Positions 5,125 to 24,678 of a stretch of 64,000 bases of DNA are shown here, piece after piece; position 1 is the stretch's first letter, and every line of letters starts with the position of its first letter. The position numbers and the translations under genes are program-made. Under the pieces are notes generated by a model. It worked only from the letters and a program-made list of their open reading frames with translations, had not been told where the DNA came from and ran no database searches. The stretch spans positions 21,771-85,770 of the forward strand of contig JAESRE010000014.1 of the NCBI GenBank assembly GCA_016764775.1, written 5' to 3'. The DNA comes from Alphaproteobacteria bacterium (GTDB taxonomy: Bacteria; Pseudomonadota; Alphaproteobacteria; Micavibrionales; Micavibrionaceae).

Positions 5125-5150
5125 TGTAAAATCCCTGATGTTTTTCGTAT

Positions 5151-9047: not shown

Positions 9048-9832
9048 AGATTATCCATTTATCAGATTTACATTTCGGCACAGAAACCGATGACCTTGTT
9101 AACCTCACTCTGGAGCATATACGTGAGGCCAAAGCCGATTTTGTCATTATCTCAGGCGACTTTACCCAAATCGGCAATAAACCCGAATTTGTTGCCGCCA
9201 GACAGTTCATTGACGATATCATCCTGCCGACATTATGCATTCCGGGTAATCACGACGTCCCGCAGCGCAATCTATATGAGCGGTTCACACGGCCTTATAA
9301 AAAGTACAAAGCCCACATTTGCGATGATTTGATGCCGACTTATAACAATGATTTGGTTGAGCTTATCGGCATAAACTCCGCACGCCGTGCCCTGCCGCAC
9401 TGGAACTGGGCCAACGGAGCGGTTTCCTTACAACAGCGCAGCGCGCTGGAATCATTCTTTAAGGATACGCCTGCTGAAAAATGGCGCATCTGTACGATGC
9501 ACCACCCTATTCACAAGATTGCGGATATGCCGATTGATGTTACCGTCTTGGGCCGCAAGCGCACTCTCGAGTGCTTTCATACATTAAAGGTGGACTTGGT
9601 TCTGACCGGTCATGTGCATCACGCCGCATTCGACATGATTGGCGACGAACAGCATAAAACAGCCTTTATCAGTGCCTCTACGGCGCTTTCCTCGCGTAAA
9701 CGCGGGCATGAAAACGGCTTTAATATCATTGAGATTGATGGTCAGCACATGCATGTTCGCATGCTGAATTTTGAAGCACAGGGCTTTGTCGAAACAAGCA
9801 CGCACAGCTTCCGTAAGTCTTCATCCATTTAA
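9044..9832 (+). CDS. metallophosphoesterase
   Basis: 262 aa with calcineurin-like motifs IIHLSDLHFG, ISGDFTQ, GNHD and GHVHH. ATGA overlap with the preceding gene. Confidence 0.75.
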   Translation: MKIIHLSDLHFGTETDDLVNLTLEHIREAKADFVIISGDFTQIGNKPEFVAARQFIDDIILPTLCIPGNHDVPQRNLYERFTRPYKKYKAHICDDLMPTYNNDLVELIGINSARRALPHWNWANGAVSLQQRSALESFFKDTPAEKWRICTMHHPIHKIADMPIDVTVLGRKRTLECFHTLKVDLVLTGHVHHAAFDMIGDEQHKTAFISASTALSSRKRGHENGFNIIEIDGQHMHVRMLNFEAQGFVETSTHSFRKSSSI

Positions 9833-9847
9833 TTCAAATCGGAAAAT

Positions 9848-10582
9848 TTATTCATCGGCCAGATAGGCATCGATCGCACCGGCCTGACGTTCGGTCAGGG
9901 TGATTTCGGTGTTTTGCGTGGTCTGGTCGAAAGCTACATTTATATTGAGCGCGGCAAAGGGGGCTGCAAATATTTGCGTTCTACCTCTGAAACCCGGCTC
10001 TACAGCTTCAAAGTATATTTCATACAAGGCGTTGTCGGCGAAAGATACTCTTTCAACAGTACCTACAAGCTGACCGCCAATATCTCTGATCGGGCTTTCG
10101 GGGAGTGTGCGCAAGCTCACAAGATTTTCGAGTTTGTCTTCATGCTTTTTCTGGTAAGGCCAGTCAAAGAATTCGTTCGTGCTTGCGTTCACAACGATGG
10201 GACCAGCATCTGAAAACTCTTCCACTTCGCCAACAGAAACCAGTATCAGCTCTGCTTCCGCGTCTGTATCTTCAGTGCGTGTTTCTTCTATGTTGACGGA
10301 TATCCATTTGACCTCTCCTGTTTGGGGGTCGGCATAGACGTCGTAAAGAATGCCAAGTACTTCATTATCTGCGCCGTAAACCGTGAGGCCCAGCACACCT
10401 GTCATTTCGTTCAACACATTTTCGGGTGGCTGTTCGGGGGTCGCTGCGGCAGTATCATAGGCTAAAGCCGGTCTCGGCTCTTCCAGAACTTCGTTATCGA
10501 AGGCTTCGTTGTACAGTACGTAGGTCAAAACCACGATACCAAAGAAACATAATAATAACGCTATGGCGGCTGAAGCTCTCAT
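9848..10582 (-). CDS. membrane-anchored protein with PRC-barrel-like repeats (tentative)
   Basis: 244 aa with an N-terminal TM helix. Two segments (NEVLGILYDVYADPQTGEVKWISV; GGQLVGTVERVSFADNALYEIYF) resemble PRC-barrel strands. Confidence 0.4.
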   Translation of the reverse strand: MRASAAIALLLCFFGIVVLTYVLYNEAFDNEVLEEPRPALAYDTAAATPEQPPENVLNEMTGVLGLTVYGADNEVLGILYDVYADPQTGEVKWISVNIEETRTEDTDAEAELILVSVGEVEEFSDAGPIVVNASTNEFFDWPYQKKHEDKLENLVSLRTLPESPIRDIGGQLVGTVERVSFADNALYEIYFEAVEPGFRGRTQIFAAPFAALNINVAFDQTTQNTEITLTERQAGAIDAYLADE

Positions 10583-10591
10583 CGTATCTCC

Positions 10592-10780
10592 CTATTTCTT
10601 GGCGATGATGTAAACGGCGTGAACGATACCCGGAACGTAACCGAGTACAGTCAGCAGAACGTTAATCCAGAAATGCTTGGTAAAGCCGACTTCCATTGCT
10701 ACACCGATTGGCGGCAGCAATACCGATAACAAAATACGGATGAAGTCACCTTGTTCGTTACGTGCTTCTACATGTGCCAT
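10592..10780 (-). CDS. Pmp3/YqaE family small stress membrane protein
   Basis: 62 aa. LLSVLLPPIGVAMEVGFTKHFWINVLLTVLGYVPGIVHAVYII matches the UPF0057/Pmp3 signature. Confidence 0.8.
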   Translation of the reverse strand: MAHVEARNEQGDFIRILLSVLLPPIGVAMEVGFTKHFWINVLLTVLGYVPGIVHAVYIIAKK

Positions 10781-10782
10781 GG

Positions 10783-11049
10783 TTAAATCTCCTTACTTTC
10801 TGTGGTTGTCGGTTCATTGAGTTCATCGAGCAATGATGGCGGAACCTCGCTTCTCGGATCGGATTCCGGCAGCTCTTTCATGTAATTCTCGCGGTAGAAT
10901 TCCTCATCCATCATCTTCTCAACATTTTGCAGTTCAAGAATGGGTTCGGAAAACGGTATCTCTGCATTGTCTTCGACTGAGCCGGAATACGGCATGAAGC
11001 CAAGCAGGAAGAGCGTTCCGGGAATTATCAGTAATTTTCTTGTAAACAT
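10783..11049 (-). CDS. small secreted hypothetical protein
   Basis: 88 aa with an N-terminal signal-like helix. The downstream Pmp3 gene starts 2 nt after its stop. Confidence 0.4.
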   Translation of the reverse strand: MFTRKLLIIPGTLFLLGFMPYSGSVEDNAEIPFSEPILELQNVEKMMDEEFYRENYMKELPESDPRSEVPPSLLDELNEPTTTESKEI

Positions 11050-11102
11050 TGTTTCAATTCCTTCTGGTTTAGTAGGTAGACAACACCCGAAACGCGTAAC
11101 TC

Positions 11103-11615
11103 CTAGCCTTCTTTAGCTTTGAAGTACGGCTCGAACTCGCGGAAGCTGATAGCGTTATCAGCGTTCTTGTCTACGCGCTCGAAAATCTTCTGAGCGTCAG
11201 ACGAGAGTTCGAACAAGAAAAATTCATCCTGGTCCAAAAGACCGTTTTCGCTTTTATCGAAAAAGCTGAATTTTTCACGTGCTTCGCTGACCGGAGGGTT
11301 AATCTCCGGCATTTCACCTGAGCGCATCTGTACCGGTTGCGGCTTCATGGCCGGTTGCGGCTTGGGGAATGATTTTTCGCTCACGATGAAATTCGGGTTG
11401 TCCTGAATTTGTTTGAACTCAGGTTGTGGGGTTAATCCCATAGTGTCGGTATAGACAGTTGTGTCGCTATTGCTTTTACCGACACTCGACAAGGTTTTCG
11501 TCGATGATTGCTCATTGATCGTAATACCTTTGTCTGCGTGTGCCTGATCCGCGAATGTCGCAACGCCAAGAGCGCCGGCACCGAGGATCAGGGTTAACAT
11601 ATAATGGCGTTTCAT
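11103..11615 (-). CDS. secreted EF-hand calcium-binding protein
   Basis: 170 aa with signal peptide MKRHYMLTLILGAGALGVATFADQAHA. EF-hand loops DKSENGLLDQDEF and DKNADNAISFREF. Confidence 0.6.
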   Translation of the reverse strand: MKRHYMLTLILGAGALGVATFADQAHADKGITINEQSSTKTLSSVGKSNSDTTVYTDTMGLTPQPEFKQIQDNPNFIVSEKSFPKPQPAMKPQPVQMRSGEMPEINPPVSEAREKFSFFDKSENGLLDQDEFFLFELSSDAQKIFERVDKNADNAISFREFEPYFKAKEG

Positions 11616-11642
11616 GATGAGAACTCCTTTTAAAAGTCGGCT

Positions 11643-11843
11643 TTAGGCCGCTTTCTTCTCAAATTCTTTAAGCTGTTTTTCAGCTTCGTCTTTGGAAACA
11701 CCGTATTGTTCTTGAATAGCACCAAGAAGTTTTGTGCGGTTACCTTCGATCTGGTCCAATTGATCGTCTGTCAATTTACCCCAGGTCTCCTGGATTTCAC
11801 CTTTAAACTGTTTCCAGTTTCCTTCAAAAATGTCCTTATTCAT
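11643..11843 (-). CDS. CsbD family general stress protein
   Basis: 66 aa. GNWKQFKGEIQETWGKLTDDQLDQIEGNRTKLLGAIQEQYG is the CsbD signature. Confidence 0.85.
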   Translation of the reverse strand: MNKDIFEGNWKQFKGEIQETWGKLTDDQLDQIEGNRTKLLGAIQEQYGVSKDEAEKQLKEFEKKAA

Positions 11844-11878
11844 TGTTCTGTCCTTTCTTTTGTTCAGATACTTACACC

Positions 11879-11904
11879 TACGGATTACGCGGTGCGGAAG
11901 TTCC
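11879..11904 (-). promoter_or_regulatory. ECF (EcfG-type) promoter motif GGAAC-N17-CGTA upstream of csbD
   Basis: Minus strand reads GGAAC ttccgcaccgcgtaatc CGTA, ending 35 nt before the csbD ATG. The -10 is a CGTA variant of CGTT. Confidence 0.45.
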
Positions 11905-11911
11905 GCACCAA

Positions 11912-12175
11912 TTAGTGGGCGCGGATATCAACACGGTCGATATGTCCGATTTGTTGTTCGGCCATCGCTTTCAGATCTTCGAGATCTGTCAGAAGGTCGA
12001 TCAAATATGTATCGAAGCTGTTGAACTCGGTTTCAGCCATGCCGTCTTCACGGTTAATAGTCTGAATGACGAGAACGTCTTCGAAAGTGCGTTGATCACT
12101 GCTGTCTCTTTTAAGATACATATCGGCAACCAGTGGGTGGGATACGCCTCTAATAACTTGTGGTACGGTATTCAT
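11912..12175 (-). CDS. hypothetical acidic protein
   Basis: 87-aa ORF with an AAGGAG-like RBS (taaaggagcaaaa ATG). No recognisable domain. Confidence 0.4.
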   Translation of the reverse strand: MNTVPQVIRGVSHPLVADMYLKRDSSDQRTFEDVLVIQTINREDGMAETEFNSFDTYLIDLLTDLEDLKAMAEQQIGHIDRVDIRAH

Positions 12176-12369
12176 AATTTTTGCTCCTTTAACAAAGTTT
12201 ATGATTCATCTTAGGAACGATTCTGTAACCGGATAACGACTCGGTTGTTTCCGTTTTGCAAAACTCTGTTTCACTTTTGTAACAACGGAAAAACACATTA
12301 TTTTTTCAAGGGTTTAGACGGCAATAAAATTTCACCCACATGCGGAAACGCGCTTTACGCCTGCGTTTA

Positions 12370-12394
12370 GGAACTATCGACACTCTATATCGTT
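12370..12394 (+). promoter_or_regulatory. ECF (EcfG-type) promoter motif GGAAC-N16-CGTT
   Basis: GGAAC tatcgacactctatat CGTT, ending 32 nt upstream of the ATG at 12427. Confidence 0.65.
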
Positions 12395-12426
12395 AGAAAG
12401 GCATAAGCATAAAAAAGGAGATTCTT

Positions 12427-12972
12427 ATGAAAACCAAATATTTAACCTTCAGTGCTGTTGCACTTGTTACCGCTTTGGCAGCGTATCCCGTTGTTGCGGA
12501 AACCGTACATACAAAAACGTATGTTGAAACTTCCGATGTCATTGATGAGCATAAAATCAACTTTTCCGCTTTTGATGTGAACGAAGACGGCATGTATGCC
12601 AAATCTGAAGTCGGTGAAAAGCTGTTCTATGTTTTTGATCAGGACGGCAACGAAGTGATCGATAACCTGGAATGGAGCGACAAAAGCATGTACACCATCA
12701 CGCCGATGGAAAAACAAACCTTTAAATTCGTCGACTATGACGATGACGGTTACACAGACCTGTCTACATATACTTATGAGACCTTTTATAAGGAATCAGG
12801 TTTGATCCGTTTTGATAACGATAAAGACGGTTTGTCTGCCGAAGAGTTTATCGGTGTCGGTTTCCAGGAACTGGATGACAACGATAACAACACTATCGAG
12901 CTGGATGAATGGGCCGAAGCCTATACAGAAATGACAGCTCCGGAAACAGCCGAACAAGAACGTTACAACTAA
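12427..12972 (+). CDS. secreted multi-EF-hand-like calcium-binding protein
   Basis: 181 aa with a signal peptide (ALVTALAAYPVVA). Four DxDxDG-type loops: DVNEDGMYAKSE, DQDGNEVIDNLE, DNDKDGLSAEE, DDNDNNTIELDE. Confidence 0.6.
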   Translation: MKTKYLTFSAVALVTALAAYPVVAETVHTKTYVETSDVIDEHKINFSAFDVNEDGMYAKSEVGEKLFYVFDQDGNEVIDNLEWSDKSMYTITPMEKQTFKFVDYDDDGYTDLSTYTYETFYKESGLIRFDNDKDGLSAEEFIGVGFQELDDNDNNTIELDEWAEAYTEMTAPETAEQERYN

Positions 12973-12999
12973 GAGCGTTCAAAAATAGATAACAAGAAA

Positions 13000-13024
13000 G
13001 GCCGCTGTTACAGCGGCCTTTTTT
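13000..13024. terminator. bidirectional rho-independent terminator
   Basis: Hairpin ggccgctg-tta-cagcggcc followed by a T run on the plus strand. It lies between convergent genes (12427-12972 plus, 13046-13288 minus). Confidence 0.7.
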
Positions 13025-13045
13025 ATGTGAGAGTTTTAAATTGGA

Positions 13046-13288
13046 TCAATGATCATTCGGCATATTGGCTACAGCCAGTCTCATTGCTTCATCAGGGCTG
13101 TTTACAGAGCCACTGGCAACCACTGAGCCGTGATAGGAAATCAACCACTTCCAGCTTTCGCGCTTTTGTGTGCACTCCCAGTCACTCTTCTGCTTTTCAA
13201 CGACCAGTTCATAGTCATCTATATCAGTACAGATCTTCTGTACCTGCCAGTCATGGTCTGCTTTTGTAATTTCTGTCAATGATGACAT
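13046..13288 (-). CDS. hypothetical 80-aa protein
   Basis: Start chosen at the ATG preceded by aaggagaagagact (MSSLTEITKADHDW..). The longer ORF-track start would overlap the promoter motif. Confidence 0.5.
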   Translation of the reverse strand: MSSLTEITKADHDWQVQKICTDIDDYELVVEKQKSDWECTQKRESWKWLISYHGSVVASGSVNSPDEAMRLAVANMPNDH

Positions 13289-13322
13289 AGTCTCTTCTCC
13301 TTGTTTCTCATACACCATTGCA

Positions 13323-13348
13323 AACGTTCGACAATTTGCTTGGGTTCC
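13323..13348 (-). promoter_or_regulatory. ECF (EcfG-type) promoter motif GGAAC-N17-CGTT
   Basis: Minus strand reads GGAAC ccaagcaaattgtcgaa CGTT, ending 34 nt upstream of the ATG at 13288. Confidence 0.65.
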
Positions 13349-13363
13349 CCTCAGGCACAAAAA

Positions 13364-13389
13364 AGCCCGTATAAATATACGGGCTTTTT
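13364..13389 (-). terminator. rho-independent terminator after the entericidin / 53-aa operon
   Basis: Perfect hairpin agcccgtata-aa-tatacgggct flanked by A and T runs, 26 nt downstream of the stop at 13415. Confidence 0.7.
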
Positions 13390-13414
13390 AAATATTTGTT
13401 TTTTGAAGCTAAAT

Positions 13415-13576
13415 TTATGAATCGCTCTTAATTTCATCGGCCATGGTATTGGCTAAATTACTTACGCTATCGCCGACTTTCTCGGCAGGCGTCTTTTCAT
13501 TTATCTGGATCATCATAACTGTGAAGATTCCAATCAACAAAACGGCAATTACGGCTAATAAACCTCTGTTGTCCAT
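13415..13576 (-). CDS. 53-aa single-TM small protein (below ORF-track cutoff)
   Basis: ATG preceded by acggaggttaac. Translation: MDNRGLLAVIAVLLIGIFTVMMIQINEKTPAEKVGDSVSNLANTMADEIKSDS. Confidence 0.5.
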   Translation of the reverse strand: MDNRGLLAVIAVLLIGIFTVMMIQINEKTPAEKVGDSVSNLANTMADEIKSDS

Positions 13577-13605
13577 GTTAACCTCCGTTAGCTATCAATA
13601 GCTTA

Positions 13606-13743
13606 TTATTCAGCGGCGTCCTGAACACTTTCTCCGGCGTGCTCAATATCCTGACCAGCACCTTCAACCGTGTTACACGCGGTTACACTCGCGCCCATAC
13701 CAACAATCATTGCGGCAGTTAGAAGTGTTTTAGTGTTTAGCAT
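13606..13743 (-). CDS. entericidin EcnA/B family lipoprotein (below ORF-track cutoff)
   Basis: 45 aa: MLNTKTLLTAAMIVGMGASVTACNTVEGAGQDIEHAGESVQDAAE. Lipobox VTAC followed by NTVEGAG.D.e.aG is the entericidin signature. RBS is gaggag. Confidence 0.75.
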   Translation of the reverse strand: MLNTKTLLTAAMIVGMGASVTACNTVEGAGQDIEHAGESVQDAAE

Positions 13744-13771
13744 AATAATTATCTCCTCGTTTAGTTAGTCT

Positions 13772-13796
13772 TACGGATTCCGTAAATTAAAGTTCC
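13772..13796 (-). promoter_or_regulatory. ECF (EcfG-type) promoter motif GGAAC-N16-CGTA upstream of the entericidin gene
   Basis: Minus strand reads GGAAC tttaatttacggaatc CGTA, ending 28 nt before the ATG at 13743. It starts right after the stop of the upstream ORF. Confidence 0.45.
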
Positions 13797-14231
13797 CTAT
13801 AATATTCTGTTACCGACAGCCAACCCCAGCGCAGTAGCCAATGCTACAGCCGTTTTCGGGTTTTCTTGTATAGGTTCGCCGAACTCATCGTTGGCGGTAT
13901 CTATAAAGCCCTGAATTTGCTGAATGGTCTCTTGAGTGTTCTTTTCTATCTCTGAGCGCCTGTAATGTGCGAGTACCGCCAAGATTACAAGGCTCAGGAC
14001 GCATAAAGAAAAGCAAACCAGTCCTGTCAGAGCAGCGGCAAGTTCCGGTTCGAAGTTGTTGCCGAACCATATGTGCGCTGCGTAAATAAGGAAGCCGGTA
14101 CCGACAATGAAGAAAAAGCAAGAAAGAGCAAGCAAGCCTATGTTGACCTTACTCTTTCTTGTTATCGGAAATTTATTACTGACGATTCTATCGATCAGTA
14201 ACTTTTCGGCTACCTTTATATAGGGTGTCAT
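13797..14231 (-). CDS. membrane protein, YqjE-like partner of DUF883 (tentative)
   Basis: 144 aa with two central TM helices. 1-nt overlap (TAATG) with the DUF883 gene, the arrangement seen for yqjD-yqjE-type pairs. Confidence 0.4.
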   Translation of the reverse strand: MTPYIKVAEKLLIDRIVSNKFPITRKSKVNIGLLALSCFFFIVGTGFLIYAAHIWFGNNFEPELAAALTGLVCFSLCVLSLVILAVLAHYRRSEIEKNTQETIQQIQGFIDTANDEFGEPIQENPKTAVALATALGLAVGNRIL

Positions 14232-14515
14232 TATCGACGCCCCAGAATGTAGCTAAGGGCCAGACCGGTTGCGAAAGCGATACCGATTGATTCGACCGGC
14301 TTTTGTTTTACTCGCTTTTCAATGACTTCGACCTGTTTGCGACCTGAAGTCTTCAGGGCATCCAGACGTTCTGTAGCCATCTCTCTTAGCTCGTGGGATT
14401 GTTCCTGACCATTGTGTTTCAGATGCTTTGTCAATTCCACAACATTGCTTTTGAGGGAATCCAAATCTTCTCTGATATCATCAATTTCAGGGTATGAAGT
14501 TTTTGCTTTTGGCAT
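14231..14515 (-). CDS. DUF883 (ElaB/YqjD/YgaM) family stress membrane-anchored protein
   Basis: 94 aa with a coiled N-terminus and a C-terminal anchor PVESIGIAFATGLALSYILGRR typical of the family. Confidence 0.8.
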   Translation of the reverse strand: MPKAKTSYPEIDDIREDLDSLKSNVVELTKHLKHNGQEQSHELREMATERLDALKTSGRKQVEVIEKRVKQKPVESIGIAFATGLALSYILGRR

Positions 14516-14542
14516 TTTTCGTTTCCTTTCGTTTGAGAAGAC

Positions 14543-14568
14543 AACGTCCGAAAGCCGAAAAATGTTCC
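14543..14568 (-). promoter_or_regulatory. ECF (EcfG-type) promoter motif GGAAC-N17-CGTT
   Basis: Minus strand reads GGAAC atttttcggctttcgga CGTT, ending 27 nt upstream of the ATG at 14515. Confidence 0.65.
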
Positions 14569-14614
14569 CGATTCATTTTTCAAAAAAAAAGCGCTATTAA
14601 GGAGTGAGGGATAG

Positions 14615-15331
14615 TTAGGCGGCCTCTGCTTTGCCGACATACATATATCCGACACCGCGAATCGTTTTGATGATCTCGCCTTTATCATCCCCGATCTTTT
14701 TACGGATACGGCCGACCTGAATGTCGATGGCGCGGTCATATATATCGTATGCACCGTCACGGGTCAGTTCGAATAACTGTTCTCTCGACAAGGCGCGGTT
14801 CGGCGCCATAACGAGAGCTTCCAAAAGCTGGAACTCTCCTGTTGTGAGGTTTAGAGAAGTCCCGTCTTTGCTGAAGGCTTGATACTGGCCTCTATCCAGA
14901 GTCCATTTCTCCAGCTTGATGACATCGGACTTCGGCTGGCTATCCGCTTTATTCTCTTCGTTATGATCGATACGACGGGCAACGGCCTTAATACGGGCGG
15001 CAAGCTCACGCATTTCAAAGGGTTTGGTCAGGTAGTCGTCGGCGCCCATCTCCAGACACACGATTTTCTCGGTAGTGTCACTTTTGCCTGACACAACCAG
15101 TATAGCCGCATCTGATTTTGCTTTTAATTGCGGGATAAGCGTGAGCCCCTCCCCGTCCGGTAAACCCAGATCGAGAAGAATGACATCGAATTCGGTTGTT
15201 TCTATGGCTTCACCGGCACTTTTAACGTCTCCGGCTTTCAAGACTCTGTATCCCTCGCCTTCGAGATACTGTTCCATGACCATCTGAAGGTCATTATCAT
15301 CGTCAATGGTAAGAACTGTGCCTTTTTTCAT
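14615..15331 (-). CDS. OmpR/PhoB-family DNA-binding response regulator
   Basis: 238 aa. Receiver (TIDDDN..VILLDLGLPDGEG..KP) plus winged-helix output (LTTGEFQLLEALV..IDIQVGRIRKKI..IKTIRGVGYMY). Confidence 0.9.
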   Translation of the reverse strand: MKKGTVLTIDDDNDLQMVMEQYLEGEGYRVLKAGDVKSAGEAIETTEFDVILLDLGLPDGEGLTLIPQLKAKSDAAILVVSGKSDTTEKIVCLEMGADDYLTKPFEMRELAARIKAVARRIDHNEENKADSQPKSDVIKLEKWTLDRGQYQAFSKDGTSLNLTTGEFQLLEALVMAPNRALSREQLFELTRDGAYDIYDRAIDIQVGRIRKKIGDDKGEIIKTIRGVGYMYVGKAEAA

Positions 15332-15506
15332 ATAGATCTCTGTAATGGGCAGATACTCTAATATTTAGCGTTATCGCAGGCCCTATATCAATCACTTTGT
15401 TACATTTTTGATACATTTTTTTTCATTAATGAAACGTAGCAGACAAAGTCAGCTTACGTACGCGGCATAAGCTCATAATTGTAGTAACCGAAAAGGAGCT
15501 TATTAA

Positions 15507-16043
15507 ATGTTTAGCAATGCAGAATTGTTACCCCACAACGACAGACTTGAAAAATTTGCATACAAACTCACACGTAACGAGGCAGATGCTCAAGATCTTC
15601 TGCAATCAACGCTGTTAAGAGCTATTGAAAAGAAAAAGTTATTCAAAGAAGGCAGCAACCTATATAGCTGGCTTTCTAAAATTATGTACAACCTGTTTGT
15701 CTCCGGCTACCGCCGTAAGACAAAGTTTGAAACACAATATGATCCGGAGCCATATCTGGAAAAGCAAAGCATTGAAGCATCACAGGATGTAAAAATGCAA
15801 TTCCGTGACGTTGATAACGCCATGAACGAGCTTTCAGATGATCACAGAGAAATTCTGGTTATGGTTTGCGTTCAAGGCATGCAGTATGCCGAAGTATCAG
15901 AACGTTTGGACATTCCGGTCGGTACTGTACGTTCCCGCCTGTCACGTGCTCGCGAGAACCTTCAAGCCAAACTGGAGGAGACGGATCAAAAGCTTTCTTA
16001 CGTCCCCGCCATGCGAATGCACGAAAATCGCGTCGCAGCTTAA
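15507..16043 (+). CDS. ECF-type RNA polymerase sigma-70 family factor
   Basis: 178 aa. Region 2 (DAQDLLQSTLLRAIEK..NLYSWLSKIMYNLFVSGYRR) and region 4 HTH (MQYAEVSERLDIPVGTVRSRLSRAR). Confidence 0.85.
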   Translation: MFSNAELLPHNDRLEKFAYKLTRNEADAQDLLQSTLLRAIEKKKLFKEGSNLYSWLSKIMYNLFVSGYRRKTKFETQYDPEPYLEKQSIEASQDVKMQFRDVDNAMNELSDDHREILVMVCVQGMQYAEVSERLDIPVGTVRSRLSRARENLQAKLEETDQKLSYVPAMRMHENRVAA

Positions 16044-16065
16044 ACTTAAAAGAAAAGCAGCTTTC

Positions 16066-18300
16066 CTAAGCTGCTTTTTTCTTCTCTTTTAAAAATTTCA
16101 GAATTTCGACTTTTAAGTCTTTCTCGACAACCGGCTTGGGTAAGTATGAATCCATCCCCGCGGCAATACATTTATCCCTGTCACCAACCAAAGCATGTGC
16201 CGTCATACCGATAATAGGCGTGCGCTCACGATCCGAAGTCTTTTCAAGTTTTCTGATTTCATTGGTAGCCGTGAAACCATCCATTTCAGGCATCTGCACA
16301 TCCATCAAAATGATGTCGTAGTGATTCTTTTCCCAGTAGCCGACACCTTCCAGCCCTGTCCTGCCAACGTCATACTCAAAACCCAATTCATCCAGAATGT
16401 AGGTTAGGACAACCACATTACCTTCGTAATCTTCGACGATCAGCGCACGTGAGCTGTCATTGATGGTTTCCTTGATTGTTTCGTTCAGCTTTTTGATGCT
16501 TCGCTTGCCGGTACCTTTTTTCGCCGACTTGGTTCTGATGTTCGCCGGTATCATGAACGAGAATGTCGAACCCTTGCCGTATTCACTACTGAGGAAAATG
16601 TCACCGCCCATAAGCTGTGACAGTTTTTTCGATATCGGCAAACCAAGACCCGTACCGCCGTATTTTCTGGATACGCTTGAATCAGCCTGTTTGAAACGTT
16701 CAAAGACAAGATCAAAATCTTCCGGTTTAATACCGATTCCCGTATCGGTTACATCAACCCGCAGATAATCGGCACCGTCGCGGTCCTCGTAATAGGCTTT
16801 AACGGTTACACCGCCATCATCCGTAAATTTGATAGCATTACCGATCAGGTTCACAAGGACCTGACGCACACGCATGCCGTCTCCGATCAAGGTGTCGCTT
16901 TTATCGATTTCATAATCAAACACAAAGCTGACGCCCTTTTCATTCGCTTTGATGGCCATCATGCTGATTGTCTGTTCGAAAATCTTGTCGAGTTCAAACT
17001 CCTCTTGGTCCAGCTCAATCTCACCGCTTTCAATCTTGGAGAAATCAAGGATATCGTTGATCAGTTCCTTCAGTGAAAGCGTGCTGGAATTCAGAGTTTT
17101 AACGAGTTGTTGTTGCTTTTCGTTGAGCGTATCAGACTGCTTTTGCAAAATCTCGGCAATGCCGCTGATTGCCGTTACAGGCGTTCTGATTTCATGGCTC
17201 ATATGGGCGAGGAATTCACTTTTTGCCCTGTTTGCTGACTGCGCTTCTTCTTTATCCGCTTTCAGCTTTTCCTGTGCCTGTTTGACATGCGTAATGTCAC
17301 TGTGCGCGCCAACAACGCGGTACGCCTTGTTGTTTTTATCAAACAAGCCTTTGGCGCGAGACTGAATCCACAACCACCGGCCGGAGGCATGCTTCATTCT
17401 GAACTCTTGCACATATTCGGAGAGATTGCCGTCGATATACTCTCGCGCGTATTTCTCTACCTGCTCGCGGTCATCTTCGTGAACCATATCCAGCGCATAT
17501 TCCAGCGACTCTTTCTTGCCGGGCGAGTCGATGCCCAACTGGGCAAAGAACTGTCGGGAATAAAAGATTTCATCTGTTTTCGTATCCCAGTCCCAAATAC
17601 CGTCCTGTGTGCCGTCAACAGCCAGTGCAAAGCGATCTTCGGACGCTTTCAGGCTTTCCTCGATCTTTGTACGCTTGCGTTGGGAGTGCAGAAGGAAACC
17701 GTTAAACAACAGCAAAACCCCTGTACCGGCACAAAGCCCGATTAACAGTGTCGTGAAGTATTCTTTTTTCTTGTTATCTAGAGTCAGAATCCGCTGTTCG
17801 AGAACGCTGTATTCTTCTTCCAGCAAGGCTTCGTTCAAGCGGATGATATCGTCGCGTAAACTGTTTACGACAGTTACATCCTTTAACGGGTTTTCAGGGT
17901 CTTCGATGTCACCCACAAACTGGGCCCGCTCCTCCAGCTTTATGGAGAAGTCGTTAAAGTAGTTGCGGATCTCGTTCAAGCGGCTCAGCTGGGCATTGTT
18001 GCTTTCCAGCAATCCAGCCAGATTGGATATCAGATCGGAGCCTTCCTGCTTTCTGGTCTGGTATTCTCTCAGAAAGTCCTGATCACCGGACAATAGATAG
18101 CCACGCTGTGATGACAGCATGCTTCGCACCAGAGCTGAAAACTCTTGCGCCTCGACGATCGTTTTGTGTGATCGTTGAACCCATTCTTCTGTCTGATCAA
18201 GCTGCTTTTCGCCCTCAATGAGGAAGAATCCCAACCAACTCACACACAGAAAAAGGAACACTACGAAAATAGTGTAGTTGCGTATGAAAATTTTATCCAT
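16066..18300 (-). CDS. hybrid sensor histidine kinase (CHASE3-like, PAS, HisKA, HATPase, receiver)
   Basis: 744 aa. TM, then a CHASE3-like region (WVQRSHKTIVEAQEF..SQRGYLLSGDQDFLREY), a second TM and a PAS domain (DGIWDWDTKTDE). H-box MSHEIRTPV; GNAIKFT, DTGIGI, GGTGLGLPIS; receiver ILMDVQMPEMDG..PKP. Confidence 0.85.
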   Translation of the reverse strand: MDKIFIRNYTIFVVFLFLCVSWLGFFLIEGEKQLDQTEEWVQRSHKTIVEAQEFSALVRSMLSSQRGYLLSGDQDFLREYQTRKQEGSDLISNLAGLLESNNAQLSRLNEIRNYFNDFSIKLEERAQFVGDIEDPENPLKDVTVVNSLRDDIIRLNEALLEEEYSVLEQRILTLDNKKKEYFTTLLIGLCAGTGVLLLFNGFLLHSQRKRTKIEESLKASEDRFALAVDGTQDGIWDWDTKTDEIFYSRQFFAQLGIDSPGKKESLEYALDMVHEDDREQVEKYAREYIDGNLSEYVQEFRMKHASGRWLWIQSRAKGLFDKNNKAYRVVGAHSDITHVKQAQEKLKADKEEAQSANRAKSEFLAHMSHEIRTPVTAISGIAEILQKQSDTLNEKQQQLVKTLNSSTLSLKELINDILDFSKIESGEIELDQEEFELDKIFEQTISMMAIKANEKGVSFVFDYEIDKSDTLIGDGMRVRQVLVNLIGNAIKFTDDGGVTVKAYYEDRDGADYLRVDVTDTGIGIKPEDFDLVFERFKQADSSVSRKYGGTGLGLPISKKLSQLMGGDIFLSSEYGKGSTFSFMIPANIRTKSAKKGTGKRSIKKLNETIKETINDSSRALIVEDYEGNVVVLTYILDELGFEYDVGRTGLEGVGYWEKNHYDIILMDVQMPEMDGFTATNEIRKLEKTSDRERTPIIGMTAHALVGDRDKCIAAGMDSYLPKPVVEKDLKVEILKFLKEKKKAA

Positions 18301-18356
18301 TAACGGCCTTTCAAGGAATAACGTATTAGTACTCGAAAAAAGTCAAACAGGCCAAT

Positions 18357-18392
18357 AAAAAAGGCGCTCTCAGCAAAGAAAGCGCCTTTTTT
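18357..18392 (-). terminator. rho-independent terminator after the DUF1328 gene
   Basis: Hairpin aaggcgct-(12 nt)-agcgcctt flanked by A6 and T6 runs, 17 nt downstream of the stop at 18409. Confidence 0.7.
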
Positions 18393-18408
18393 ACAAAATT
18401 GACTATGG

Positions 18409-18585
18409 TTATACGGGTGGAGCACGACCTCTAAGGGCGCCGACCAAGGCAGAAATCAAGAACAGTGCCAAGAATACTACAAAGACAATCTGTGCGATTT
18501 CTACAGATACAGCTGCTACACCACCAAATCCTAATACAGCCGCAATAAGTGCGATGACCAGGAATGTGAGAGCCCAACCGAGCAT
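18409..18585 (-). CDS. DUF1328 (UPF0391/YtjA) small membrane protein (below ORF-track cutoff)
   Basis: 58 aa: [58 protein letters not shown], the family signature. RBS is aaaggagac. Confidence 0.8.
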
Positions 18586-18630
18586 ATTAAGTCTCCTTTC
18601 GCTGCAAGTTGTATTGCTTCTGCCCTAACA

Positions 18631-18655
18631 AACGTATGACGGGGTGTATGGTTCC
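18631..18655 (-). promoter_or_regulatory. ECF (EcfG-type) promoter motif GGAAC-N16-CGTT
   Basis: Minus strand reads GGAAC catacaccccgtcata CGTT, ending 45 nt upstream of the ATG at 18585. Confidence 0.65.
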
Positions 18656-18679
18656 TTGCTAATTTTCCTGAATTCGGCA

Positions 18680-18704
18680 GGAACTCAAGCTGGCCAATTA
18701 CGTA
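18680..18704 (+). promoter_or_regulatory. ECF (EcfG-type) promoter motif GGAAC-N16-CGTA, divergent from the previous one
   Basis: GGAAC tcaagctggccaatta CGTA on the plus strand, upstream of the small ORF ending at 18970. Confidence 0.45.
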
Positions 18705-18784
18705 GGAAGTTATGTATCATGTTTGTAACAGAGACAAATATCAGACGTTTAATGAGAAGGGGCAATCCCCCGGAGCTTATTAGG

Positions 18785-18970
18785 ATGCAGGACAAAACCA
18801 TAACCCGCTACGACGTGGAAGCTTTGGTCGACAACGAATTAACATGGGCTGATGCACAGAACGTAATGCTTCATATAAAGCAAGATAGAGTACTATCCGA
18901 CTATTATGAGCAACTCAGAACCCAGAAAGAGCTTCTTCAGGAATGGTGGGCCGACGTAAAAACCGACTAA
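18785..18970 (+). CDS. small hypothetical protein with an anti-sigma-like N-terminus (start uncertain: 18719, 18752 or 18785)
   Basis: Frame open from 18644. The ATG at 18785 has ggag 10 nt upstream. DVEALVDNELTWADAQNVMLHIKQD..YYEQLRTQKELLQEWW resembles the N-terminal helices of some anti-sigma factors. Confidence 0.4.
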   Translation: MQDKTITRYDVEALVDNELTWADAQNVMLHIKQDRVLSDYYEQLRTQKELLQEWWADVKTD

Positions 18971-18996
18971 AACCGCCAATTCTCTATAGTTTGCAC

Positions 18997-19022
18997 GGAA
19001 CATTTCCGGCGCCTCGAACGTA
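18997..19022 (+). promoter_or_regulatory. ECF (EcfG-type) promoter motif GGAAC-N17-CGTA upstream of the hemerythrin-like gene
   Basis: GGAAC atttccggcgcctcgaa CGTA, ending 23 nt before the ATG at 19046. Confidence 0.45.
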
Positions 19023-19045
19023 TATAGTGGTAAGAGAGGCGCATC

Positions 19046-19540
19046 ATGGATATTAAGAAAAACATAGAATACGACCACGAGAAAATCAGAAAATATATAC
19101 ATGATCTGGACGCTATGGGCCGTTCGGACACGGCTTTGCGAAAGCCGCTTTTCGAGATGCTCAGAAAAGAGCTTCTGATCGTGCAGAAAGCCGAGGAAGA
19201 GACGCTTTATCAAGAGCTCGAAAGGCGCAATGAAGCCAATTCTCTCGTGCACACATTAGAAGATGAAAGTGATACAATTAAATCTTTGCTGAAAAGCTTG
19301 GAAAAATGCGAGCCCAATTCAGAAGATTGGCACAGCGATTTCAAGAAGTTGAAGCGCAAAGTGTTTCAGCATTTCGACAAGGAAGAGCGCAAGCTTCTGC
19401 CGAAAGCCCAAAGAGCGTTGCCGGCTGAAGAGGTTGCGGAAGAATTCGACAACGAGAAGAGAGCCCTTTGGAAAACCAGTACACTGGTCGAGAAGGTTTC
19501 TGCTGTCGAGCATTTCTCGAGAACAGTCCGCGCCGCATAA
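19046..19540 (+). CDS. hemerythrin HHE cation-binding domain protein
   Basis: 164 aa with spaced H/E ligand pattern (YDHEKIRKY, QKAEEETLYQELE, HTLEDESD, FQHFDKEER). Confidence 0.65.
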   Translation: MDIKKNIEYDHEKIRKYIHDLDAMGRSDTALRKPLFEMLRKELLIVQKAEEETLYQELERRNEANSLVHTLEDESDTIKSLLKSLEKCEPNSEDWHSDFKKLKRKVFQHFDKEERKLLPKAQRALPAEEVAEEFDNEKRALWKTSTLVEKVSAVEHFSRTVRAA

Positions 19541-19551
19541 TTTAAGGAAAA

Positions 19552-19600
19552 ATGGTGATCGCGCAGGGATTCGAACCCTGGACCTACTGATTAAAAGTCA
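19552..19600. repeat. attL: 49-bp duplicate of the tRNA-Lys 3' portion
   Basis: atggtgatcgcgcagggattcgaaccctggacctactgattaaaagtca is identical to 34748-34796. It covers the tRNA from the anticodon loop to CCA and diverges immediately afterwards. Confidence 0.9.
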
Positions 19601-19711
19601 TTTGCGATAATAAAGGGTGGTGTGTGAAGCAAAAGACTTTTACTATTTTTCAATAACTTAGCTAATAGAGAGTTAACAAACTTATACCTCAACATTCTCT
19701 AATTCTGTATG

Positions 19712-19733
19712 CAAGTGTCCCATGAGTGTCCCA
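19712..19733 (+). repeat. 22-bp repeat caaGTGTCCCAtgaGTGTCCCA (copy 1), candidate recombinase arm site
   Basis: Identical to 34681-34702, in the same orientation. Each copy contains two GTGTCCCA units spaced 11 bp start to start. Confidence 0.6.
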
Positions 19734-19872
19734 CGGATTCCAGATTTTTCAAAAAAGTTGTACAAAACCACTATCCTGCAATTCACAGGCACTTCGTAAA
19801 ACCTCGCATACAAATCTTTGTTAACCTTTTTGTCTCAAAAGCGCAAATTTTTTAGCAACGATAACAAAACAA

Positions 19873-20581
19873 GGGGCTGTCCCAGATAACCGAGAAAGGT
19901 TATCAATATGGACATGCGAAAAAGCCGTTTAAGCAAATATAAACAGGATCGATTGATCGAGCATTTTGTGTCTGGCTCAACCGCCAGAACAGCCGCCGAA
20001 TTGGTGAATGTAAACAAGACAACAGCGGCTTATTATTTCCATCGTTTGCGAGAAATTATTGCTGCCGAGACGCAAAACCGAGATGTTCTATCAGGAGAAT
20101 TTGAGGTTGATGAGAGCTATTTCGGCGGCACGCGAAAAGGACGCCGCGGACGGGGTGCGGCAGGTAAAGTTCCTGTCTTCGGAATCCTAAAGCGCGGCGG
20201 TAAGGTTTACACACAGGTCATTCCCGACGCATCCGGCAAGACGCTTATTCCGATCATAGAGAAGCGCATTATGCCTGACAGCATCGTCTATTCTGACTGC
20301 TGGAAAGGTTATGATGTGCTCGATGTTTCAGAGTTCAAGCATTACCGGATCAACCATTCGATTTTGTTTGCCGATCAGAAAAATCATATCAACGGGATTG
20401 AGAATTTCTGGAACCAGGCCAAACGGCACATGCGTAAATTTAACGGTATTCCTGCCAAGCATTTTTCGCTATTTTTGAAGGAGTGTGAATGGCGTTTTAA
20501 TAACAGTGATTCTAAAACGCAATTAAAACAGATAAAGCAATGGGTTAATAAATATATTAGCTAATTATCTAGGACAGCCCC
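19873..20581 (+). mobile_element. IS1595-family insertion sequence, intact
   Basis: Terminal inverted repeats GGGGCTGTCCCAGATAA (19873-19889) and GGGGCTGTCCTAGATAA (complement of 20565-20581). 8-bp target duplication CAAAACAA at 19865-19872 and 20582-20589. Single transposase ORF. Confidence 0.85.
19908..20564 (+). CDS. IS1595-family (ISXO2-like DDE) transposase
   Basis: 218 aa with an N-terminal HTH (TARTAAELVNVNKTTAAYYFHRLR). Catalytic region FEVDESYFGG..VPVFGILKRGGKVYT..VYSDCWKGY..HYRINHS..NGIENFWNQAKRHM. Confidence 0.85.
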   Translation: MDMRKSRLSKYKQDRLIEHFVSGSTARTAAELVNVNKTTAAYYFHRLREIIAAETQNRDVLSGEFEVDESYFGGTRKGRRGRGAAGKVPVFGILKRGGKVYTQVIPDASGKTLIPIIEKRIMPDSIVYSDCWKGYDVLDVSEFKHYRINHSILFADQKNHINGIENFWNQAKRHMRKFNGIPAKHFSLFLKECEWRFNNSDSKTQLKQIKQWVNKYIS

Positions 20582-20787
20582 CAAAACAAATATGTCCATC
20601 CCCCATACCCGAGCGACGGGCGTGGGCATATTTGTTCCGTTTAAACGCAGCTCATGTAAATTTTTTTATGCCTTTTTAAGCTAAATTATTACCTCGTAAG
20701 CTTTTGAAATTAAACAAACGATTTTAAAAAGAAATAAAAAAAATATTTTTTTAATATTAAAATCAATAACTTAAACAAATTTTTTGT

Positions 20788-20816
20788 TTGACAGAATCTT
20801 CTTCATTCCGTTACGC
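20788..20816 (+). promoter_or_regulatory. possible sigma-70 promoter for the Xis-like gene
   Basis: TTGACA, 17-nt spacer, then TTACGC, about 30 nt upstream of the ORF. The -10 is weak. Confidence 0.3.
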
Positions 20817-20842
20817 TGAAAGTATGAGGTTGAATTTTTTAA

Positions 20843-21088
20843 ATGCAGGGGAGCTTTGAATTGAGTATTTACACCGTCAAACAATTTGCCATGCGCTATC
20901 CCGCATTTTCTGAAAGCACACTTCGCCGGTTAATCGCAAACGAAGAACAAAACAATTTTGAAATTTGCACAATTCGGCCACCGAATGTGAAGCGTGTTTA
21001 CATTGATGAACAGAAGTTTTTAATATGGGTAAATTCAAACACTCAACAAGAAAAAGATAGCGACAATAGAAGCTCTATTTCATTTTGA
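20843..21088 (+). CDS. AlpA/excisionase-like HTH DNA-binding protein (tentative)
   Basis: IYTVKQFAMRYPAFSESTLRRLI resembles the Xis/AlpA-type HTH start. The real start is more likely the TTG at 20861, behind GGGGAG. Confidence 0.45.
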   Translation: MQGSFELSIYTVKQFAMRYPAFSESTLRRLIANEEQNNFEICTIRPPNVKRVYIDEQKFLIWVNSNTQQEKDSDNRSSISF

Positions 21089-21131
21089 GAGCGTCATCTA
21101 AAACCTGAACTAATTATAATTATGACTGTGC

Positions 21132-21434
21132 TTATTTTTCAGCTTTTCTATCAAGACTTACAATTCCACCGCCACGGCTTACACGAGTCCAAACAACAGT
21201 TTTGATTTCTTCGTCTTCTCCGTCTTCCACAACATATCCGAGTTCGCTCAATGTGGTGTCGTCTTGAACCATTGTCCAAGTTCGGCCTTTGCATTTATCT
21301 AACAAAATATCACCATGAAGTGGTTTACCAGCCTCAACAATTTCAAAACATGGAGCATTTGCATCGTATGTTTCAATAAAGTGTACGGCGACACCTAGAA
21401 TAGCTAACCCAATAAATATATGTGTTTTTTTCAT
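21132..21434 (-). CDS. small secreted hypothetical protein
   Basis: 100 aa with a signal-like N-terminus MKKTHIFIGLAILGVAVHF. No recognised domain. Confidence 0.4.
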   Translation of the reverse strand: MKKTHIFIGLAILGVAVHFIETYDANAPCFEIVEAGKPLHGDILLDKCKGRTWTMVQDDTTLSELGYVVEDGEDEEIKTVVWTRVSRGGGIVSLDRKAEK

Positions 21435-21467
21435 TGGTAGTCCTTTCTAGGGCTTATTTTAATTCTT

Positions 21468-23336: not shown

Positions 23337-23394
23337 TCTTTCCTAACCTGTATTTAAATGATTTTGTTAAAGCCATTGTTATTAAAACTGTGTC

Positions 23395-23757
23395 CTATTT
23401 CAGCTTCATATATTTTTTGAATGGTATGCTAAACCAATCATAATCTAAGCAATTTTCATTTTGTTTTTCTGGCATTGCCATCATATGCTCGACAATATCA
23501 GTACCGAATAAGAATTCAGCTTCGTGCGTTAAATCTAGCAAATCTTCGACCGTCATGGGCGGTGTATCATGAGGGCTTTCTATGTGAGCGCAGAATCCAT
23601 TCCAGAGCATTTTGAAAAACCGGTATCGTTTATCAAATAATTGCTGCTTTCGGGCTTCTTCTGCTGTTCGCCATTGTTGGAATGCGATTAAAGCTACAGC
23701 CAGAGCGATTGCCGGTGTTAAAAGTGCAGATAATATATCAATCCAGTCTTTTTCCAT
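23395..23757 (-). CDS. hypothetical N-terminally membrane-anchored protein (last gene of the operon)
   Basis: 120 aa with a TM helix ILSALLTPAIALAVALIAF. The ATG is 1 nt after the stop of the upstream ORF. No recognised domain. Confidence 0.45.
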   Translation of the reverse strand: MEKDWIDILSALLTPAIALAVALIAFQQWRTAEEARKQQLFDKRYRFFKMLWNGFCAHIESPHDTPPMTVEDLLDLTHEAEFLFGTDIVEHMMAMPEKQNENCLDYDWFSIPFKKYMKLK

Positions 23758-23758
23758 A

Positions 23759-24673
23759 CTAATCGCCCTGATACCCTAGAAGATACTGACTACTTGCATC
23801 CGGAGCGATTACGTTCATAACATCATAAATGAAGAAATACCGGTCGGTTTCAAAACCCTGATTATCTTTTTGGATTTGAATATCACCTCGTACTTTTAGG
23901 ACGGTTTTCGGAAAAGGAAACTCTTCTTGGCTGAGTTGGCCGTTCTGGAATTTTTCCAGCCATTCAGTGTCCAAGATTTTGGCCTTATAATTGTGGCCGT
24001 CTGTATCTTGCACTGACCAACGACTTTCTCCTTCATAAGCTAGTTGTTTAATCCGGATCAGTTTCTCCTGATTGCGCCATGTTTCTTCTGAAGCCATGAG
24101 GATTTCTTCAACATCCGCAGATTTGTAACGAAAGTTTCGATTGACTTCATGTTCCTTCCCTTGGGCTATGACCGTAATCTTTTGGGAAGAATTCAATCCC
24201 TTATCAGGTGGTGATAAGCCACCAATAGCTTCTGCTACAGACCGTTCGGACAAACCTTGAATAGCGGTTGTATTTTGGCTTCCAGCACTTTCTGCAACCT
24301 GTTTTAATTTGTCTTTTACTTCGCGCAAATCCTCAATTTTGTCGATCTTTTCATGATCGTCTATGTAATCGAGCAATGCTTCACGGCCATCTACTAAGGC
24401 TTGGCGCATGAATGCTGTAAAACCTTTGTCCTTTATTTCTTTCTGATCGGTGTTTTTGAGGACGTTTTTTATAAAAAGCTTTATAGAACTGTGCTGAATA
24501 TCTTCCATTAAAATGGTTGATTCAACTTGCTGGTCGAAGGCTTTGGCTAGAATAGCGTTAGTTTGTGCGTGGCCTTCAACTATTTTTGAAAGAGCAAGAA
24601 GACTTCCGGCCAGATCGTCTTTGGCCGGATCATAGTCGATTTTGATGATATATTTGTCTTCTATTTCTTCCAC
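23759..24673 (-). CDS. hypothetical 304-aa protein, no recognised domain
   Basis: GTG start behind AAGGA, 5 nt after the T5orf172 gene stop. Natural-looking amino-acid composition over its whole length. Confidence 0.5.
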   Translation of the reverse strand: MEEIEDKYIIKIDYDPAKDDLAGSLLALSKIVEGHAQTNAILAKAFDQQVESTILMEDIQHSSIKLFIKNVLKNTDQKEIKDKGFTAFMRQALVDGREALLDYIDDHEKIDKIEDLREVKDKLKQVAESAGSQNTTAIQGLSERSVAEAIGGLSPPDKGLNSSQKITVIAQGKEHEVNRNFRYKSADVEEILMASEETWRNQEKLIRIKQLAYEGESRWSVQDTDGHNYKAKILDTEWLEKFQNGQLSQEEFPFPKTVLKVRGDIQIQKDNQGFETDRYFFIYDVMNVIAPDASSQYLLGYQGD

Positions 24674-24678
24674 AATCC

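Follow-up and report, generated by a model that had tools for sequence, protein, structure and literature searches.

The window analysed here is a stretch of 64,000 nucleotides (64 kb) from contig JAESRE010000014.1 of an alphaproteobacterium of the Micavibrionaceae. Between positions 11879 and 19022 it contains an island of small genes grouped around a gene for an extracytoplasmic function (ECF) sigma factor (15507-16043, plus strand), which is related to EcfG and falls into a separate clade. Within the island there are eight exact matches to GGAAC-N16/17-CGT(T/A), found both by reading the sequence and by pattern search. A sequence-only reading of the window had listed eight such motifs, and the pattern search recovers all of them at the same positions and on the same strands. 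On the basis of the conservation described below, we regard them as true promoters that are used by an alternative sigma factor.

Promoters 1 to 5 lie to the left of the sigma gene. Promoter 1 (11879-11904, minus strand; GGAAC-N17-CGTAgG) ends 35 nt before the start codon of csbD (11643-11843, minus; Pfam CsbD, 1.2e-18), and csbD has the same motif in the related locus L009 (numbers of this form denote contig loci fetched around homologues of the island sigma factor). Downstream of csbD on the same strand are an EF-hand gene (11103-11615), orf88 (10783-11049), pmp3 (10592-10780; Pfam Pmp3, 1.7e-22) and a PRC-barrel gene (9848-10582; Pfam PRC, 8.9e-8); judged by their spacing, with gaps of 2-53 nt, the five genes may be co-transcribed. 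Promoter 2 (12370-12394, plus) precedes by 32 nt the gene of an EF-hand-like secreted protein (12427-12972, plus), which is followed by a terminator at 12994-13024. The remaining three are on the minus strand. Promoter 3 (13323-13348) is 34 nt from an open reading frame (ORF) of 80 aa (13046-13288) that is conserved in L004, L009, L012, L014, L020, L024 and L026. Promoter 4 (13772-13796) is 28 nt from the entericidin gene (13606-13743; Pfam Entericidin, 3e-9), after which come a 53-aa ORF (13415-13576) and a terminator (13360-13389). Promoter 5 (14543-14568) is 27 nt from a DUF883-like gene (14231-14515) that overlaps the gene of a 144-aa membrane protein (13797-14231).

To the right are promoters 6 to 8. 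Promoter 6 (18631-18655, minus) ends 45 nt before the DUF1328 gene (18409-18585, minus; terminator 18356-18393). It is back to back with promoter 7 (18680-18704, plus), which is upstream of a gene for an anti-sigma-like protein of about 61 aa (18785-18970, plus), and the same arrangement is present in L009 and L017. Promoter 8 (18997-19022, plus) is 23 nt from the hemerythrin gene (19046-19540, plus). We note that such divergent pairs of ECF promoters are frequent, with the -35 elements separated by 2-24 bp; besides the pair in the window, the distant relative L029 has three (284-342, 5508-5559 and 7014-7068). The start of the small gene is most probably 18785 (61 aa) and not 18719, another alternative being 18752, as judged from its homologues and from the gene calls in L007 and L009. 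Motif 7 thus lies about 80 nt upstream of the start codon, and not 14 nt as proposed from the sequence alone; the 14-45 nt given there for all eight motifs holds for the other seven (23-45 nt).

Between promoters 5 and 6 lie the sigma gene and two signalling genes, both on the minus strand. On one side is an OmpR-family response regulator (RR; 14615-15331) comprising a REC domain and a winged helix (Pfam Response_reg, 7e-26; Trans_reg_C, 4e-21), transcribed divergently from the sigma gene. On the other is a hybrid histidine kinase (HK; 16066-18300) with CHASE3, PAS, HisKA, HATPase and REC domains. The transcription units of the island are set apart by strong terminators, and an Rfam search of the island found no RNA family.

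The motifs are far denser than the base composition of the DNA would produce. There are nine exact matches in the whole window, of which eight are in the island, compared with a mean of 1.76 in dinucleotide shuffles of the window. Over 300 such shuffles the densest 7.2-kb stretch contained four sites, against the eight observed, and when the island was shuffled by itself (n = 2000) the mean was 0.19 and the maximum three. Of the 7,203 bases of this stretch 1,278 are intergenic, and all eight sites fall within these; each is oriented toward the adjoining gene. A repeat search found no extended similarity among the eight promoter regions, which rules out an origin as copies of a mobile repeat element. 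Matches to sigma-70-like promoters are depleted over positions 9500-20000 (6 found, compared with 15.2 ± 4.1 expected), which fits a region transcribed mainly from alternative promoters. The ninth exact match (42266-42290, minus) is probably a chance occurrence; it lies inside a 963-aa ORF and scores poorly with a matrix that takes account of the flanks. A near match, CGAAC-N16-CGTTgG at 35432-35456 (plus), has a matrix score of 18.3, within the range of the true sites, and is a candidate for a further promoter. It is located 46 nt before a 69-aa ORF (35503-35712, plus) with a hydrophobic N-terminus, predicted to be membrane-bound or secreted and situated between coaD-like and gyrA-like genes, that may be a member of the regulon outside the island. 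A 27-nt inverted repeat with 85% complementarity connects the 3′ end of csbD (11637-11663) with the -10 element and leader of the DUF883 promoter (14532-14558); this may be due to chance.

Homologues of the sigma protein number in the hundreds in Micavibrio and in alphaproteobacterial metagenome assemblies, and a scan of species-representative genomes adds uncultured Micavibrio species, alphaproteobacterial metagenome-assembled genomes (MAGs) and Sneathiella species, with sigma identities of 45-67%. The comparative reading covers 10 kb on either side of each sigma match. The common gene order in the fetched contigs is OmpR-type regulator, sigma factor and CHASE3 hybrid kinase, and around this core the relatives carry genes for CsbD, Pmp3, PRC, entericidin, DUF883, the 144-aa membrane protein, DUF1328 and OmpA, together with small ORFs. 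The motif recurs before orthologous genes in more than 15 related genomes, while the spacer sequences vary freely from one genome to the next. Exact motifs are enriched over expectation in L001 (6 vs 0.23), L004 (5 vs 0.19) and L029 (8 vs 0.53).

Since MAFFT misaligned the motif, short orthologous promoter regions were compared by motif-anchored counting, in which each locus was scored for a motif no more than 250 nt upstream of the orthologue. The motif precedes DUF883 in 12 of 13 loci, DUF1328 in 13 of 17, entericidin in 10 of 13, the EF-hand gene in 6 of 7 and pmp3 in 3 of 5. By this count it is found before none of the sigma genes (0/27), RR genes (0/23), HK genes (0/18) or homologues of an 87-aa ORF, orf87, that is described below (0/7). 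Of 34 sites taken together, 24 have a 16-nt spacer and 10 a 17-nt one, and the region upstream of the -35 element is rich in A and T. Conservation extends to a position outside the search pattern: 28 of the 34 sites have a G two bases after CGTW, i.e. CGTWnG. This additional G is frequent in loci where the sigma gene is accompanied by the RR and HK, and rare in loci where it is linked to phyR (2/8 in L038, 2/7 in L054 and 1/12 in L070), which are likewise enriched for GGAAC..CGTT. In Sneathiella and in the Micavibrio-like MAG L037 the -10 element reads TGTTnG instead of CGTWnG, as seen before the DUF883, entericidin and DUF1328 homologues of L024, L020 and L037; the conserved core of the -10 element is thus GTTnG.

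The proposal that this is a compact ECF-type stress regulon grouped around the sigma gene is therefore borne out, by the clustering of motifs beyond that seen in shuffled DNA and by their conservation. The support that the motifs were thought to lend to several very short ORFs is also real, as the genes encoding proteins of 80, 53, 61 and 45 aa are conserved in other genomes. The assignment of the genes to families typical of a stress regulon stands for the most part. CsbD, entericidin, DUF1328, hemerythrin, Pmp3 and PRC pass the Pfam cut-off. In Sphingopyxis EcfG acts directly on csbD and ecnAB (PMC7083833), and in Sphingomonas its targets include PRC-barrel, outer-membrane and small secreted proteins (PMC6599016). 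DUF883 and EF-hand fall below the cut-off.

The island sigma factor has ECF regions 2 and 4 by Pfam, and its five best NCBIfam models are PRK12511 (125 bits, cut-off 185), PRK12546 (116, cut-off 270), PRK12547 (104, cut-off 219), PRK12540 (96, cut-off 307) and PRK12516 (84, cut-off 321), all of them below cut-off. The same five are the best models for the solved sigma chain 5uxx_A, which passes PRK12547 with 318 bits. We take 5uxx_A to be the EcfG of Bartonella; its database name is only ‘RNA polymerase sigma factor’, and its sequence has motifs typical of rhizobial EcfG. It is 35% identical to the sigma factor of the window, which scores slightly better against SigH of M. tuberculosis in a search of the PDB. 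Identity to PhyR-linked sigma factors is 31-38%, hardly above that to ECF sigma factors from outside the Alphaproteobacteria. In a single alignment the mean identity of the clade is 32.5% to the PhyR-adjacent sigma factors and 30.3% to the outgroups, the PhyR-adjacent proteins being 42.7% identical to one another. In a neighbour-joining tree the sigma factors linked to the RR and HK form one monophyletic clade with a bootstrap of 60/60, which nests among EcfG-like sequences of the Alphaproteobacteria. Linkage of the clade to both RR and HK is found in about 20 genomes.

Neither nepR nor phyR was found in the 64-kb window or in the 10 kb on either side of the sigma gene in any of 30 related loci. 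The query for PhyR was the Caulobacter sequence, validated against 3n0r_A; neither the window nor any locus of the sigma clade yielded a full-length match to it, and the same search finds PhyR beside other sigma factors, in L036, L038, L054, L063, L065, L070, L073 and L081. There is no ORF that could be a nepR candidate in the 175-nt gap between the RR and sigma genes, and this is also true of L001, L004, L009 and L010. Nor did Pfam and PDB searches match the island's small conserved ORF to NepR. The only ECF-type sequence before the sigma gene is GAAAC-N21-CGTA, which we rejected as it has the wrong spacing and is not conserved. The scores below cut-off, the identity of 31-38% and the lack of local phyR and nepR argue that this sigma factor is not a canonical member of the ECF15 group; it is EcfG-related in its ranking of models and in its promoter code. 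The suggestion of the sequence-only reading that this is an EcfG regulon can therefore be kept in part. The core motif is the published EcfG consensus GGAAC-N16-CGTT (PMC3892343, PMC7083833) and the regulon is of a fitting type, but the sigma factor of the island is not a canonical EcfG and its gene lacks an autoregulatory GGAAC..CGTT promoter. Its conserved linkage to the regulon genes, together with the clade-specific extension of the motif, makes it the presumed reader of the eight promoters.

The sigma gene lacks an ECF-type promoter and has instead an array of TGwwACA-like heptamers in its upstream region (15398-15458, plus). The six heptamers are TGTTACA, TGATACA, TTTTTCA, TGAAACG, AGACAAA and GCTTACG, starting 10-11 bp apart. 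Read by eye, the last of them occupies the -35 position relative to CATAAT (15474-15479) of the presumed promoter of the sigma gene. The whole window has three exact copies of the box TGTTACA-N4-TGWWACA, each of them within the island, and the family was recovered independently by a repeat finder. Apart from the copy before the sigma gene, there is one at 12267-12284 (minus), upstream of orf87 (11912-12175, minus; no ECF motif), and one at 18713-18730 (minus), immediately past the -10 element of promoter 7 in the leader of the anti-sigma-like gene. The sigma gene and orf87 share an upstream stretch of about 95 bp that can be aligned, and each has the box 91 nt ahead of its start codon. Amongst relatives the box is found upstream of the sigma gene in 17 of 27 loci and upstream of the orf87 homologue in 5 of 7. 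The RR-sigma intergenic block is conserved in at least 15 loci. In about 20 loci the RR gene is adjacent to and divergent from the sigma gene, the array lying in the intergenic region that they share, and the HK is conserved downstream of the sigma gene in related loci. A 7-bp direct repeat with a 4-bp spacer is the geometry of the sites bound by regulators of the OmpR/PhoB family. Given this geometry and the divergent adjacent gene, the OmpR-family RR is the obvious candidate to bind the array, and the arrangement suggests that it controls transcription of the sigma gene. The sensor for the RR is likely to be the CHASE3-PAS hybrid kinase.

A second signalling cluster (4156-7412, minus), conserved in L007 and L009, encodes a CheX-like phosphatase, a single-domain receiver and a hybrid kinase (5151-7412) that has an Hpt domain; this domain could serve the CHASE3 kinase, which lacks one. 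The product of orf87 is acidic and is conserved next to the island in several genomes. It has nine homologues only and no Pfam family; its AlphaFold 2 (AF2) model has a pLDDT of 74, and Foldseek aligns it to unrelated alpha/beta domains with a TM-score of about 0.4.

The 61-aa protein encoded behind promoter 7 falls into a family whose 440 members are about 58-83 aa long and have no Pfam domain; several of them have been named ‘anti-sigma factor RsiW’ by the Joint Genome Institute. Many members of the family appear to share contigs with sigma homologues. With a profile of the family, members were detected in 13 clade loci. They are always on the strand of the sigma gene and usually just beyond the kinase and DUF1328; in L029 the small gene follows the sigma gene directly and has a motif of its own. 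The AF2 model of the protein consists of three helices with a pLDDT of 91. The 15 best Foldseek matches in the PDB are all ECF anti-sigma chains (ChrR, RslA, RsiW and RskA), with TM-scores normalized to the query of 0.6-0.7; ChrR gives a TM-score of 0.71 and a root-mean-square deviation of 1.1 Å over 48 columns. Matches of the ORF to an adhesin and to SRP54 are spurious. It is the agreement of the predicted fold with anti-sigma domains, together with the linkage to the sigma gene, that leads us to describe the protein as anti-sigma-like. On this basis it may be a minimal soluble anti-sigma factor under a promoter of its own sigma factor, which would create negative feedback.

Taken together, these observations lead us to favour, with fair but not strong confidence, a self-contained stress island in which an EcfG-like sigma factor is wired to a two-component system and a small anti-sigma factor and not to PhyR and NepR. 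In this scheme the sigma factor would direct RNA polymerase to the eight GGAAC-N16/17-CGT(T/A)nG promoters, which would drive short transcription units for small envelope and stress proteins, i.e. CsbD, the secreted EF-hand protein, the 80-aa protein, entericidin with the 53-aa protein, DUF883 with the 144-aa membrane protein, DUF1328 and hemerythrin. The product of promoter 7 would bind the sigma factor and so provide negative feedback. Upstream, the CHASE3 hybrid kinase would signal to the OmpR-family RR, which would switch on the sigma gene and the co-regulated orf87 via the TGwwACA array. The sigma gene has no ECF-type promoter and is preceded by the conserved heptamer array, which extends to its -35 position in a layout reminiscent of PhoB/OmpR-type activator sites. 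Control at this locus would thus be exerted by two-component transcriptional activation and a conventional mini anti-sigma factor, in place of the PhyR-NepR partner switch.

Several points weigh against this scheme, at each of its levels. The status of the eight sites as promoters is argued from conservation, and the binding of the RR to the array from adjacency and repeat geometry. The hybrid kinase has no Hpt domain, which makes direct phosphotransfer to the RR uncertain. The clade members in L016, L019, L021, L025, L028 and L031 have no adjacent RR or HK. The Foldseek matches of the small protein have E values of at least 1.1 and are not significant, and Pfam and PDB sequence searches with it gave nothing significant, zf-HC2 appearing at E = 0.1. 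The position of the clade among EcfG-like sequences is separated from the outgroups with a bootstrap of only 39/60. Lastly, the genome may contain, at another site, a canonical EcfG with PhyR and NepR that recognizes this core motif, and a genome of the Sneathiellaceae (L036) does carry a PhyR-linked sigma factor.

The last point leads to an alternative that we consider rather improbable but worth setting out, that the promoters are read by a PhyR-NepR-controlled EcfG from another part of the genome, the island sigma factor being a secondary paralogue, similar to SigU or EcfG2, that amplifies or modulates the response. This would account for a core motif identical to the EcfG consensus, and for the motif enrichment of the PhyR-linked loci L038, L054 and L070. 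Moreover, about half of alphaproteobacterial genomes have additional EcfG-like copies without adjacent nepR or phyR (PMC3892343). Yet the regulon genes are physically linked to the island sigma gene across more than 15 genomes, and the CGTWnG extension is typical of loci of the island type and not of those linked to phyR. The island also has an anti-sigma-like gene of its own behind the motif, and control of the sigma gene by a master EcfG would call for a GGAAC..CGTT site, which that gene lacks. Less probable again is that the island sigma factor reads the promoters but is governed mainly after translation, by the 61-aa anti-sigma factor and an unknown signal, with the RR, HK and array belonging to a separate circuit or the array binding a different transcription factor. 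L028 and L031 are consistent with such an arrangement, since they retain the box before the sigma gene without an adjacent RR or HK, and the position of the small gene directly after the sigma gene in L029 is the classical sigma/anti-sigma order. It is harder to reconcile with an RR gene that is divergent from the sigma gene in about 20 loci with the array exactly in the region between them, and with repeats that have the geometry of OmpR/PhoB-family sites. That the cluster of motifs is an artefact of chance or composition, or the remains of a repeat element, can be set aside almost entirely. One in 100 dinucleotide shuffles of the window did reach nine matches in total, but none had more than four sites in 7.2 kb. 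The intergenic position and correct orientation of all the sites, their conservation before orthologues in many genomes with divergent spacers, the conservation of a further position that was not selected for, and the lack of extended similarity between them all weigh against it.

The scheme that we favour can be compared with three kinds of known system. It resembles EcfG (ECF15) with NepR and PhyR in the core promoter, in the kinds of target (csbD, entericidin, PRC-barrel, outer-membrane and small secreted proteins), in the class of host and in the nearest HMM models. It differs in that the sigma factor is 31-38% identical to PhyR-linked ones and below family cut-offs, that there is no local nepR or phyR, and that the kinase is of the HisKA/CHASE3 type and not HWE/HisKA_2. 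In addition the nepR-ecfG operon is autoregulated from an EcfG-type promoter (PMC7083833), unlike the island sigma gene, and the -10 element of the island has the extra conserved G (CGTWnG). EcfG paralogues such as R. etli EcfG2, Caulobacter SigU and Sphingomonas EcfG2 are EcfG-like sigma factors that have neither an anti-sigma factor nor PhyR encoded next to them, read the same or a very similar motif and share targets (PMC3892343). These paralogues co-exist with a canonical EcfG1 and usually depend on it, the comparison with the island being made at the level of the locus only. In the island clade an RR, an HK and a mini anti-sigma factor are conserved as partners of the sigma factor, and the regulon adjoins its gene.

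ECF sigma factors activated by two-component systems are also known, namely SigE-CseBC and SigQ-AfsQ1/Q2 (ECF39) of Streptomyces, and ECF234 (PMC8999054). As in these systems, the island sigma gene adjoins genes for an OmpR-family regulator and a sensor kinase, and the control proposed is of sigma-gene transcription (PMC8999054). In contrast to them, the island belongs to another phylum and ECF group, has an anti-sigma-like protein and a CHASE3 hybrid kinase, and its regulatory link is deduced from conserved repeats. The small protein is like the class I anti-sigma domains of ChrR, RslA, RsiW and RskA in that the predicted three-helix fold superposes on them, without statistical significance; unlike those proteins it comprises about 60 residues (61 aa) with no zinc motif, transmembrane segment, sensor domain or Pfam match. 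What is distinctive here is the conserved link of the sigma gene to an RR, an HK and a mini anti-sigma domain, the absence of an autoregulatory promoter of the sigma gene, the extended -10 element and the clustering of much of the regulon around the sigma gene. Literature searches found no description of the island module, and nothing useful on PhyR or ECF sigma factors in Micavibrio or Sneathiella; the clade may nevertheless have a group number in the ECF classification already.

A wider proposal can be put forward tentatively, as a possibility that we would not yet back. Micavibrio-like and Sneathiella-like Alphaproteobacteria may possess a separate ECF group, not described before and derived from EcfG or sister to it, that keeps the promoter code (as CGTWnG) and the stress gene set. 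In it PhyR-NepR would have been replaced by two controls, activation of sigma-gene transcription by a pair of CHASE3 kinase and OmpR-type regulator through the repeat array of 11-bp periodicity, and feedback from a soluble anti-sigma domain of 60 residues; this portable island could even be the sole general stress response of the predatory Micavibrio lineage.

If the scheme is correct, a conserved clade uses the EcfG promoter code and runs a regulon of the EcfG kind while being wired to an ordinary two-component system and a minimal anti-sigma factor. Sigma specificity and regulon, as the output layer of the response, would then be seen to evolve independently of its input layer, the integration of signals. 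The island would constitute a compact and tractable module, having eight promoters, one sigma factor, an RR, an HK and an anti-sigma factor in about 10 kb. It would also provide a functional context for tiny unannotated protein families (those of 61, 80, 87, 53 and 144 aa), and the promoters would be evidence that short ORFs are real genes.

Immediately after the island is a stretch of low G+C content (38-46%; 19908-34824) that ends at a gene for tRNA-Lys (34749-34824, minus). It contains genes for an IS1595-family transposase (19908-20564), GmrSD (21468-23336), a helicase/ResIII protein (25868-27952) and an MmeI-type restriction-modification enzyme (28622-31378), and has the appearance of a defence island that was acquired. 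In the closest relatives (L007 and L009) the contigs break off right after the hemerythrin gene.

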